The notes beneath the pieces were generated by a model. That model made no database searches. It was not told the DNA's origin and saw only the letters and a list, made by a program, of their open reading frames with translations. DNA of 64,000 bases from a phage: NCBI GenBank assembly GCA_036253035.1, contig GCA_036253035.1_4123.1; one strand, written 5' to 3'. The first letter of the stretch is position 1, and every line of letters starts with the position of its first letter. Both the position numbers and the translations under genes were made by a program. Positions 1 through 64,000 of this stretch are shown here, piece after piece.

Positions 1-598
1 ATGAACCACCACGGATAGGATGCCCACTACCACTTAAAAAGCTTTTCGGTGTAATATCAAACTCACCAAATTCAGGATCAATAATAGTTACTTTTGTTTT
101 AGTATTAATATAATTAACTTTGCTATAATCAAAATCAATGTCAGATCTCTTTTCTTTTGCTTCTTTAATAAATTGTTCTGTTGTTTTTGTTTTTTTTACA
201 ATATCGTTATTAATAGATCTAGAAGGATGTCCACAACCACTTAAAAAGTTGGTGGGTGTAATATCGAATTCACCATATTCAGGATCAATAATAGTTACTT
301 TTGTTTTAGTATTAATATAATTAACTTTGCTATAATCAAAATCAATGTCAGATCTCTTTTCTTTTGCTTCTTTAATAAATTGTTCTGTTGTTTTTTTAGA
401 TGAACCACCACGGATAGGATGCCCACTACCACTTAAAAAGTGATTGGGTGTAATATCAAACTCACCAAATTCAGGATCAATAATAGTTACTTTTGTAAAA
501 GAATTAATATAATTAACTTTACTATAATCAAAATCAATGTCAGTTCTTTTTTCTTTTGCGTCTTTAATGAATTGTTCAGTTGTTTTTTTAGCTGGCAT
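1..598 (-). CDS. tandem-repeat protein, N-terminal part (three ~65-aa repeats; gene continues past window start)
   Basis: ATG at 598 on minus strand, frame open to position 1; repeat unit FIKxAKEKRxDIDFDYSKVNYINxxTKVTIIDPEFGEFDITP..SGxGHP; resembles nucleic-acid-binding repeat modules found with phage homing endonucleases, Cys mostly lost. Confidence 0.55.
   Translation of the reverse strand, partial: MPAKKTTEQFIKDAKEKRTDIDFDYSKVNYINSFTKVTIIDPEFGEFDITPNHFLSGSGHPIRGGSSKKTTEQFIKEAKEKRSDIDFDYSKVNYINTKTKVTIIDPEYGEFDITPTNFLSGCGHPSRSINNDIVKKTKTTEQFIKEAKEKRSDIDFDYSKVNYINTKTKVTIIDPEFGEFDITPKSFLSGSGHPIRGGS
1..598. repeat. tandem direct repeat, about 3 copies of a ~200 bp unit (coding)
   Basis: near-identical blocks starting near 1, 205 and 400 (e.g. 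ccacttaaaaag...caggatcaataatagttacttttg recurs). Confidence 0.8.
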
Positions 599-648
599 TA
601 ATTAAAAACTCCAATTTAGTACTTTAATTTCTATAAAATAATTATAGC

Positions 649-60960: not shown

Positions 60961-61605
60961 TTATTTGTAATATTTACCTAGTACTGAATAAATTTTCAGT
61001 CTAAGTTCTGTCCAGTTTTCGATATATTCAAAACCACTATGATTCTTATACATAGTATTATGAGAACATCCCATCATAACTGATGGAATACCAAGACCCA
61101 TAGCAGTTTCAATATTATTGATATAATCATCAATCATTAGTTTTACATCATATCGTGTTTGTAAATCCTCTAATGCTTCTTTCTTTGATTCATTCATTTC
61201 TATGATAATAATCTCATCAAAGCAGTTTTCACCAAATTCACGCATTAGATTTACATTTCGTAAAACTTCACCATAGCCTTTTTTACCACATTTTGTGAGT
61301 ACTACGAATTTTTCTTTATGAAAACGATCACGTAGCTCTTGTACAATATCAACTGTATTTGGTTCGACTGGCTTTAACAACCCAAACAAATATGATTGTT
61401 GGTTGAACTGTTCAAGAATCTTTTTAACTTCAGGTTGAGGAACACCCAACCAGTCTGATAAATCATATTCTAATGGGTATGGTGTTGATGGTGTGATATT
61501 ATAAGTTTGTTTTACAAACTCAGAAAGCATACCCATATGGTCCAATAGAACTTCATCACAATCAAAAACTATACAACGTGGTTTCATTACATGTTCCCCG
61601 AACAA
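60961..61605 (-). CDS. HAD-superfamily hydrolase (5'-nucleotidase-like)
   Basis: 214 aa; motif I FDCDEVL (DxDxV). Confidence 0.55.
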   Translation of the reverse strand: MFGEHVMKPRCIVFDCDEVLLDHMGMLSEFVKQTYNITPSTPYPLEYDLSDWLGVPQPEVKKILEQFNQQSYLFGLLKPVEPNTVDIVQELRDRFHKEKFVVLTKCGKKGYGEVLRNVNLMREFGENCFDEIIIIEMNESKKEALEDLQTRYDVKLMIDDYINNIETAMGLGIPSVMMGCSHNTMYKNHSGFEYIENWTELRLKIYSVLGKYYK

Positions 61606-62576
61606 ATTAGGTCAATCTCACACAGTAAAGCACTAAGATTCATTTCACGGTCTGATACTGTTGCTTGCTTAACAACTGCATCACGAATTTTAACTTTAAT
61701 CTTCATCAGTGTGATTTCATCAGTACTGAACATTTCAGCATTACGATACAGATAAGAAAAGAATGCATCCATCTCATCATCAGGGATATTTTGTACAATT
61801 TGTTCACGCATTTGGCGAATGTTTCCTGCCTTTAATGCTTCAACAATTGCAGTACGATACCCTGCTGAATTTTCAATACTATCTTCAAGTTTTACTAGCT
61901 TACCATCAACAACTGAACTTTGCAATACGTTTAGTGTTTTACGGAAATCAGGATAGGAAGCATTGATATACTTTTGAACTTGTTCAACACTATCATCACT
62001 ACTCAAATCAACACCTTCTGCTAGAAGAATATTATAAATTCGAGTCATGAATTGTTCCATATCATGCTTTTCGATTGTAATAACTTGAACACGAGAAATG
62101 ATAGGTTTTTGAATTTTATGTGGTTCGTTACTTGTTAAAATAAAGCGAGCATTTTCATGATAGTCTTCCATTACACGTTTCAAACTACCTTGTGCTTTGT
62201 GGTTCATCTGCTCCATTTCTTCAAGAACAAAAATACGATATCTACCAAAACATGATAGCTTTGCTGCGGCATCGATTTTGTCACGAACAGCATCAATGCC
62301 TTCATCGGACATGTTAAGCGTGGTCACATCACTTGGATCAAGGTGTCCATTTTGAACTAGTCCATTAATTAGTACTTTGATCGCAGATGTTTTACCAGTT
62401 CCTGCTGGGCCAAAAAACCCAATATGTGGAATGTCACCAGTCTTAATCCATTCTTCCATTTTCTGGCGTAGTGCATCGTTTTTTGATACATAATCTTCCA
62501 TTGATTGTGGGCGATATTTTTCAGTCCATAGTGTGGTCATTTGTATTTCCTTATGTGTACGTGTTATAGAATCCAA
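61587..62576 (-). CDS. clamp-loader AAA+ ATPase subunit (T4 gp44 / RFC small-subunit-like)
   Basis: 329 aa; EKYRPQ, Walker A GPAGTGKT, FVLEEMEQ, SRVQVITI (SRC-like). Confidence 0.8.
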   Translation of the reverse strand: MDSITRTHKEIQMTTLWTEKYRPQSMEDYVSKNDALRQKMEEWIKTGDIPHIGFFGPAGTGKTSAIKVLINGLVQNGHLDPSDVTTLNMSDEGIDAVRDKIDAAAKLSCFGRYRIFVLEEMEQMNHKAQGSLKRVMEDYHENARFILTSNEPHKIQKPIISRVQVITIEKHDMEQFMTRIYNILLAEGVDLSSDDSVEQVQKYINASYPDFRKTLNVLQSSVVDGKLVKLEDSIENSAGYRTAIVEALKAGNIRQMREQIVQNIPDDEMDAFFSYLYRNAEMFSTDEITLMKIKVKIRDAVVKQATVSDREMNLSALLCEIDLICSGNM

Positions 62577-62889: not shown

Positions 62890-63216
62890 TTAACGACCAA
62901 AGGTTAGCATTTTAGTTCGTGGATCTTCATCTGAAACTAAACTAACTGCGGCTGGGTAATCAACCAAGTTTAATTCAATACCATCAACTTCAATAGTTCT
63001 TGACCATCGACCATGATCAATTAAAATCCATTGACCTTCTTTAATATCAGTAATGTCTTCGCCTACAGAATAAACTTTTGCCCAGCGAGAACGAATACCT
63101 CTAATTTTACCGTCATCGTTTGTTAAAACGATACCACCTGCTGTTTTGCGTTCACCATGTTCCAGTTCAGTTACCAGTACTTTACCTTTACATGCAGTCA
63201 TTACTTTATTAGTCAT
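62890..63216 (-). CDS. GroES-like co-chaperonin (Cpn10 family)
   Basis: 108 aa; KTAGGIVLT mobile-loop-adjacent motif, size and beta-rich profile. Confidence 0.55.
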   Translation of the reverse strand: MTNKVMTACKGKVLVTELEHGERKTAGGIVLTNDDGKIRGIRSRWAKVYSVGEDITDIKEGQWILIDHGRWSRTIEVDGIELNLVDYPAAVSLVSDEDPRTKMLTFGR

Positions 63217-63224
63217 TTAATATA

Positions 63225-63569
63225 TTACTCCTGATCTTTGGTTCTAGCTCGACGTGGTGCTTTCTTCTCTTCAGAAACCTCAGCTTCTTGTTCTTCGGGC
63301 TTAACTTCAAAACTCTCATCATCCCATACTTCATCCGTACCATGTTCAGTACTATGAAGTTGATGTTCAGGGATATAATCAGGAATTTGCATTTCTCGTT
63401 CTTTTTCTTGAATCAACTCTTCACGAGTTTTAATAATTGTTCCACCTGAACCGATTTTATCACCACGTGCGTTTAAATTAGCATTACCTAATGCTACCTG
63501 ATGTTGATTTTGGTACTTGAGCATATCCATGTCAATTGTTGTACCACGATAAGTTGTATGTTTAGACAT
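63225..63569 (-). CDS. hypothetical acidic protein
   Basis: minus ORF 114 aa. Confidence 0.55.
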   Translation of the reverse strand: MSKHTTYRGTTIDMDMLKYQNQHQVALGNANLNARGDKIGSGGTIIKTREELIQEKEREMQIPDYIPEHQLHSTEHGTDEVWDDESFEVKPEEQEAEVSEEKKAPRRARTKDQE

Positions 63570-63614
63570 ATCAAAATCCTTTTATTGTATGTGTGATATA
63601 AGCCTACAATAAAC

Positions 63615-63625
63615 ATTATATCACA
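63615..63625 (-). promoter_or_regulatory. extended -10 promoter element (TGTGATATAAT)
   Basis: minus catgTGtgaTATAATgttt; inverted copy of the same motif 16 bp away. Confidence 0.4.
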
Positions 63626-63632
63626 TGTTTTT

Positions 63633-64000
63633 CTACCATTTCAAAAATTCGTTAACATCAAGTTCGTACTTCAATGAATCTACCATATGTAGTCCAATCA
63701 AAAACAAACAGTATGATGCAACAGAGCTTCCACGACCTAGACCCCAAAAGATCTCATTTTCTTCCATATAATCAACAAGCCATATCATACATCTTAATAG
63801 CTTTGTCATATTATAATATTCATATAAATCTAGTTCATACTCAACACGCTTTCGTGCTTCATCTGATGTACATTTTTGTAAGAAAAAGTCACGTAGATTT
63901 ATATTATCGTATACTGGATCATAACGCCAAAGTTCATGATTTTTATCATGCTCGATAGTATAATCCAGCATACGTTGTTCTAAGCCAAATTTTTTACAGT
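63633..64000 (-). CDS. DnaE (family-C polymerase) N-terminal-region homolog, C-terminal part of an ORF that starts beyond window end
   Basis: frame open to 64000; ..RVEYELDLYEYYNM..IWLVDYMEE..GLGRGSSVASYCL..ELDVNEFL parallels E. coli DnaE ..RLETELQVINQMGF..YFLIVMEF..GPGRGSGAGSLVAYAL..DLLFERFL as I recall it; ORF stops where PDFDVDF would follow. Confidence 0.5.
   Translation of the reverse strand, partial: CKKFGLEQRMLDYTIEHDKNHELWRYDPVYDNINLRDFFLQKCTSDEARKRVEYELDLYEYYNMTKLLRCMIWLVDYMEENEIFWGLGRGSSVASYCLFLIGLHMVDSLKYELDVNEFLKW

Follow-up and report, generated by a model that had tools for sequence, protein, structure and literature searches.

We conclude, with a probability of roughly 0.8, that the open reading frame (ORF) running off the end of the window, the whole 64,000-nucleotide stretch of phage DNA analysed here, belongs to an intact gene, of which the window contains the 3′ part, and that this gene encodes the N-terminal subunit of a two-gene minimal C-family polymerase core, whose halves would rejoin non-covalently as an auxiliary polymerase. 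Membership of the ORF in the split mini Pol III family is very likely, and templated DNA synthesis by the reconstituted pair seems probable. The predicted core is conserved in jumbo phages of the RaK2/PBECO4/PA5oct/Atu_ph07 type ('group 2.2'). This arrangement has already been published and is computationally defined, and the present case is a rediscovery.

The reading frame at the window end is part of an intact gene

The ORF lies on the minus strand, with 121 of its codons inside the window and the first 51 beyond the window end.

63633..64000, (-): codons 52-172 and the TAG stop (63633-63635), the 3′ two-thirds of a putative gene encoding the N-terminal half of a split minimal Pol III alpha

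A first-pass annotation of the same DNA had described a DnaE-like frame that stops immediately before the expected catalytic motif, and this minus-strand ORF does contain every string on which it relied: GLGRGSSVASYCL, ELDVNEFL and, at its end, EFLKW. Over its last 3 kb, the window shares 99.3% identity with Escherichia phage PBECO4 (NC_027364.1, 237282-240282) and with some 20 other Asteriusvirus jumbo coliphages that have genomes of 350 kb. We therefore read the sequence past position 64000 from the annotated PBECO4 genome. There the complete ORF is gp449 (YP_009150763.1), a protein of 172 aa whose residues 52-172 are the window fragment, identical at 121 of 121 amino acids. PHROG 11127 matches this protein, hereafter the N-half, from end to end (E = 3e-87).

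Reading the whole gene also disposes of one of the proposals made in the first pass, that the frame might encode a stand-alone PHP-domain protein. The complete ORF has only 172 codons for amino acids and no PHP match, and the PHP domain sought beyond position 64000 by way of PBECO4 is present neither in the ORF nor upstream of it. The genes upstream of gp449 are unrelated, encoding a 103-aa hypothetical protein (gp450) and then a virion protein of about 800 aa.

At the opposite end of the window (2-601, minus strand), a separate ORF runs off the window start. It contains three tandem modules of about 64-69 aa with the pattern KTTEQFIKEAKEKR(S/T)DIDFDYSKVNYIN..TKVTIIDPE(F/Y)GEFDITP..FLSG.GHP, which we take to resemble the repeated DNA-binding modules of phage homing-endonuclease-like proteins.

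The N-half matches Pol III alpha up to the catalytic aspartates

Pfam family PF07733 (DNA_pol3_alpha) matches the window ORF with E = 8.3e-10 and 39.1 bits (cut-off 23.9), over positions 16-95 of the 260 in the profile; in the complete protein the match spans residues 92-171 (E about 1e-9). When a 47-sequence family alignment (A1) was compared with E. coli DnaE by hhalign, residues 98-172 aligned with DnaE 320-396 at E = 6.8e-6. The Pfam and hhalign results show that the similarity to Pol III alpha just ahead of its catalytic aspartates, which the first-pass annotation had claimed, is real and not due to chance. A phmmer search of the PDB with the single 172-aa sequence gave no match, and the family profile was required at this distance; searched against PDB sequences, the A1 profile retrieved nine DnaE chains (E = 0.015-0.11) and one weak unrelated match. 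The first 91 residues of the N-half have no Pfam match. AF2 predicts the fold of the N-half with confidence.

63639..63878, (-): residues 92-171, homologous to the beginning of the palm ('NTPase') of Pol III alpha and corresponding to E. coli DnaE about 320-392
63723..63743, (-): GxGRGS loop, G137-L-G-R-G-S-S143, corresponding to E. coli DnaE 359-364
63636..63650, (-): conserved C-terminus and split point, E168-F-L-K-W172, corresponding to E. coli DnaE E389-N393 (EFL = R390-F-L392)

In C-family polymerases, the GxGRGS loop holds the triphosphate of the incoming nucleotide. G137, G139, R140, G141, S142 and S143 in this loop are invariant in the 47 homologues. The loop (GLGRGSS, 137-143) and the terminal EFL (168-170) are spaced in the N-half exactly as in E. 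coli DnaE (33 residues), where GPGRGS occupies 359-364, FERFL 388-392 and PDFDVDF 400-406. The N-half ends within the eight-residue loop ahead of the catalytic DxD, 4-5 residues short of the D401/D403 pair, or eight residues short of D401 where its C-terminus is set against E389-N393. Its homologues in the alignment (31-85% identity) end in the same way, with EFL(K/R) followed by 0-3 residues, apart from a few with longer tails of 6-14 residues. The position of DnaE R390 is occupied in the phage family by a nearly invariant glutamate (E168). Given this glutamate, the chemistry near the nucleotide may differ from that of DnaE.

A second gene supplies the metal-binding motifs

Searching the rest of the genome for an ORF that begins near the PDFDVDF motif had been suggested in the first pass, and PBECO4 contains one. 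Its gp488 (270767-271405), annotated as 'DNA polymerase', lies on the same strand 30.3 kb beyond gp449 and encodes 212 aa; the protein begins MQDSTDSKHYRKARTDIDIDF, its start reading ...RKARTDIDIDF. Among the options offered for the window ORF, that of a split polymerase is therefore borne out, in the sense of two separate genes (gp449 and gp488). Within the 64-kb window itself, a search of all six frames for a partner ORF bearing DxDxD gave chance matches only; we infer the partner in the window's own genome, outside the window, from the 99.3%-identical relatives. Another PBECO4 protein considered as the partner, gp066, is annotated 'nucleotidyltransferase' but belongs to the RlaP family and is unrelated.

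Ten residues (D16, D18, D20, K80, D82, R149, P150, K152, H190 and Y194) are invariant in 45 homologues of gp488, the C-half (alignment A2), and several of these homologues start directly at MDIDIDF. The C-half residues match, in order, DnaE D401/D403, K553/D555, FRPGP 638 and KSHxxAY 758. The motif matches to M. tuberculosis DnaE1 are likewise collinear (413-424, 568-673 and 764-787). Scores from sequence comparison are weak, with E = 0.045 for the Pfam finger domain and E = 0.13 for the PDB profile; with hhalign, the C-half family aligned to the right region of the E. coli DnaE sequence, at a non-significant probability of 1.8%. The decisive comparison was instead a fold search. The AlphaFold model of gp488 is very confident (pLDDT 93.7), and the best structural matches are replicative polymerases only. 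Motifs and predicted fold together argue for assigning the C-half as a part of Pol III alpha.

A polymerase palm divided between two proteins

Combined, the two halves amount to 384 aa, one third of the 1160 aa of DnaE. The cut runs through the palm: its helical front, with the GRGS loop, is on the N-half, and its DxD strand is on the C-half. In addition to the DxD pair (D16, D18), the C-half contains the third aspartate (D82) and the lysine that goes with it (K80), a thumb of reduced length and a finger stub (RPG, KxHAxAY). The thumb has lost about 90 residues, with 66 residues from DxD to K.D compared to 154 in E. coli. The fingers are very reduced: RPG and K.H are 39 residues apart rather than 119, and the C-half stops 24 residues past K188, in the motif equivalent to KSH. 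Neither subunit contains a PHP domain, a clamp-binding motif, an OB fold or a tau-binding region, and the HhH of DnaE is absent as well. Fingers as small as these put templated, processive synthesis by the predicted enzyme in doubt.

We propose that the two proteins would associate non-covalently, rebuilding a single Pol-beta-like nucleotidyltransferase active site, and that the pair would act as an auxiliary DNA polymerase beside the T4-type family B replicase. In PBECO4, the family B polymerase is gp512 (PF03104 exonuclease, PF00136 polymerase), and the phage also encodes a separate RNase_T exonuclease, a clamp loader, a primase, UvsX/Y and a gp32-like SSB. Repair, gap filling or synthesis of one strand are possible roles for the pair, as put forward by Iyer et al. 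2021. It is also conceivable, if rather unlikely, that the pair is the second replicase of a two-polymerase replisome, with the family B enzyme copying one strand and the C-family enzyme the other, in analogy to PolC and DnaE in Firmicutes, or that it is a template-independent or otherwise specialised nucleotidyltransferase, switched on when its separately regulated halves meet. If true, in either form, no smaller C-family catalytic core would be known, and no other that is built from two polypeptides across the active site.

Both halves occur together, in separate gene blocks

Of 50,697 phage records searched with tblastn, 94 contain the N-half and 96 the C-half. Counted by genus (N-half/C-half), the records number 34/34 for Escherichia, 11/11 for Pseudomonas, 10/11 for Klebsiella, 8/8 for Salmonella, 8/8 for Erwinia, 4/4 for Xanthomonas and 4/4 for Yersinia. 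The genes are far apart in all seven genomes for which both coordinates were listed, by 15 kb in CM1, 30 kb in PBECO4, 34 kb in RaK2, 44 kb in PA5oct, 116 kb in SCTP-2, 182 kb in Atu_ph07 and 224 kb in Phosso (range 15-224 kb). Across these seven phages, the two halves diverge in parallel.

Two records stand out by their size. The C-half is present in Alishewanella phage Slickus01 (OQ508957.1), whose genome of 141.6 kb is below jumbo size (>200 kb), and the N-half is present on a 9.9-kb contig from human faeces (MT836517.1). The split enzyme may extend beyond the jumbo phages.

Each half sits in a gene block of its own, conserved from PBECO4 as far as the distant PA5oct, whose pair is YP_010679018.1 and QCG76101.1. 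After the C-half come a small gene on the opposite strand and genes for a structural protein, the primase and a helicase-like ATPase. Downstream of the N-half lie genes for a small protein, a GroES-like protein and the clamp loader. The genes downstream of the window ORF are unrelated to polymerases, in line with the first-pass annotation, and the phage carries a T4-type clamp loader, as stated there.

63225-63569, (-): 114-aa protein, function not assigned (PHROG 14844), directly downstream of the N-half gene
62890-63216, (-): GroES/gp31-like co-chaperonin; the order N-half, small protein, chaperonin is also found in PA5oct
61587-62576: RFC/gp44-like clamp loader
63593..63644, (-): predicted sigma-70-like promoter and hairpin, from consensus and folding predictions

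The 114-aa protein has a conserved N-terminal motif, G..(I/V)DMD.L..QN...VA(L/V)GN.N(L/V)NA(R/K)GDK(I/L)G.GG.II.T, followed by an acidic tail. In Pseudomonas phage PA5oct, the corresponding position is taken by a protein 46% identical to it (E = 2e-16), which makes the 114-aa protein a conserved neighbour of the N-half and conceivably an accessory factor. A second GroES/gp31-like gene in PBECO4, gp507 (L006 39924-40259), lies near the family B polymerase. The predicted promoter consists of TTGAAA, an 18-nt spacer and TG-TATAAT (an extended -10), agrees with the consensus at 11 of 12 positions and lies across the N-half stop codon; a 14-bp hairpin (-14 kcal/mol, folding z-score -2.1) falls within the 63 nt that separate the N-half gene from the next. 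The promoter and hairpin are context, no part of the enzyme, and these predictions indicate that the downstream gene has its own signals.

On the upstream side, gp450 (103 aa, L001 11112-11423, minus strand; RaK2 ORF161; PHROG 15348) extends 41 nt into the beginning of the N-half gene in PBECO4 and RaK2 alike, an arrangement that suggests translational coupling. We considered gp450 as a part of the enzyme or as its frameshifted N-terminus and rejected both ideas, as it has no Pfam match and no homologue at the corresponding upstream position in PA5oct.

Purifying selection and alternative explanations

A search of 5.8 billion proteins returned 176 homologues of the N-half, nearly all of them 171-187 aa long, down to about 40% identity and on contigs as large as jumbo-phage genomes. 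Searching 1.84 billion cluster representatives with a profile gave 477 clusters (50% identity) at E <= 1e-30 and 961 at E <= 1e-10; the family numbers roughly 3000 members in this search. Among the best 150 clusters, every protein is 152-196 aa long and the profile ends no more than about 10 residues from its C-terminus. For the N-half genes of PBECO4, TH47 and RaK2, the Nei-Gojobori method gave pN of 0.035-0.13 and pS of about 0.72, corresponding to dN/dS of 0.013-0.058 with dS saturated. The N-half is evidently a strongly constrained, ancient small protein.

This record bears directly on the suggestion, also made in the first pass, that the gene is a decaying remnant, a host-acquired DnaE truncated before its catalytic motif and now non-functional. 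The Pfam domain match of only about 80 residues and a stop codon directly before the essential aspartates are what such a remnant would offer. A fixed length of 172 aa and a fixed EFLK end, kept down to 31% identity and across 477 or more clusters, contradict it, as do the invariant GxGRGSS motif and the dN/dS values; there are no variable truncation points and no relaxed selection, the AF2 fold is confident, and the matching C-half co-occurs. We regard decay as scarcely credible. It is highly improbable, too, that a single polypeptide is restored by intron splicing, trans-splicing, a split intein or programmed recoding. The halves do abut at one loop of DnaE, the N-half ending at about 396 and the C-half starting at about 400, and split-intein DnaE is a known precedent. 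However, the N-half ends 2 residues past FL with no intein N-fragment, and the C-half has before its DxD only 0-15 poorly conserved residues of low pLDDT, without an IntC or nucleophile motif. The genes also lie in separate conserved blocks, and cis-splicing is very unlikely because they are 15-224 kb apart, each with its own start and stop codon.

The main live alternative to a templated DNA polymerase follows from the reduced fingers and the change of R390 to glutamate: the pair may be catalytic with a different chemistry, as another nucleotidyltransferase of the Pol-beta fold (a terminal transferase, a modifier of primers or ends, or an enzyme of nucleotide signalling or anti-defence). The drastic cuts in thumb and fingers (66 versus 154 and 39 versus 119 residues), the C-half's early stop past K188, the lack of clamp, OB or tau modules, the glutamate in place of R390 and the phage's possession of a complete family B replicase with its exonuclease would all suit such an enzyme. 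Against this, the remaining finger motifs (RPG, KxHAxAY) are of the DnaE type, the genes lie in replication modules near the clamp loader, topoisomerase, primase and helicase, and the best structural matches are solely replicative polymerases. On balance, we consider a different chemistry improbable, though to be taken seriously. That the N-half might act alone as a non-catalytic factor, for example as a decoy or regulator binding host Pol III or nucleotides, would fit a small protein that is separately expressed and has an N-terminal part of about 90 residues without a sequence match to any family. Its near-perfect co-occurrence with the C-half (94 versus 96 records) and its most conserved element, the GRGS loop of the catalytic site, which is meaningful only beside the aspartates, make this a very slight prospect. 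The reading that we favour is still a two-piece C-family core acting as an auxiliary polymerase.

Comparison with known systems

Iyer, Anantharaman, Krishnan, Burroughs and Aravind (2021, Viruses 13:63, PMC7824862, sections 3.4.1 and 3.5) described a "minimal split Pol III alpha" in group 2.2 jumbo phages, with an N-terminal 'NTP-binding' protein and a C-terminal 'Mg2+- and template-binding' protein encoded by distantly located genes. In their account, the split enzyme lacks the other Pol III domains and occurs alongside a family B polymerase in RaK2-like phages; its reconstitution was inferred, and it may work together with the family B polymerase or serve in repair. They speculated that it possibly preserves the ancestral, pre-fusion state of the bacterial replicase (PMC7824862). 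Nothing essential differs between their system and the one described here. Both PHROGs, 11127 for the N-half and 11778 for the C-half, are labelled DNA polymerase, and several GenBank records call the gp449 orthologues 'DNA polymerase III alpha'. A full-text literature search for a later paper on the split enzyme found the 2021 paper alone. The PA5oct omics paper makes no statement on the gene for either half, and the mentions of 'polymerase III' in the PaBG paper, which we also followed up, concern the gamma and beta subunits only.

Our analysis adds the exact split point (DnaE FL392/D401), the invariant residues of both halves, confirmation based on structure, dN/dS, separate synteny for each half and the extent of the metagenomic family, which comprises 477 or more clusters at 50% identity. 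What it describes is the catalytic centre of a bacterial-type replicative polymerase severed precisely where the nucleotide-binding loop gives way to the metal-binding aspartates; a large group of giant phages, already equipped with a T4-type polymerase, has kept this split state for a very long time. The arrangement bears on the minimum size of a C-family polymerase, on the origin of such enzymes and on how jumbo genomes of 350 kb are copied or repaired.

DnaE (1160 aa in E. coli; PDB 2HNH, 5FKU and 2HPI) and PolC (3F2B) have the same Pol-beta-like palm and share with the phage pair, in the same order, GxGRGS, DxD, the third aspartate in K.D, RPG and KSHxxxY. Unlike in these enzymes, the phage palm is made of two polypeptides totalling about 384 aa, with the aspartates on a separate protein. 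The pair also differs from them in having no PHP domain, beta-clamp motif, HhH, OB fold or tau-binding domain, and in the replacement of R390 by glutamate.

Cyanobacterial DnaE, with its split intein, likewise comes from two distant genes (dnaE-n and dnaE-c). The cyanobacterial split site is far downstream, after about residue 774, whereas the phage split falls inside the palm, and the phage junctions carry no intein sequence. The cyanobacterial halves are ligated into one full-length protein, while those of the phage presumably stay separate. A phage polymerase core made from two genes is also known in family B, in the gp43A/gp43B enzymes of Aeh1-type T4-like phages (Petrov et al. 2006, as cited in PMC3622015). 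As presented in that citation, gp43A and gp43B resemble the phage pair in that assembly is assumed to be non-covalent. They differ from it in family and in layout: gp43A and gp43B are encoded by adjacent genes, whereas the split Pol III is a family C enzyme whose genes lie tens to hundreds of kb apart.
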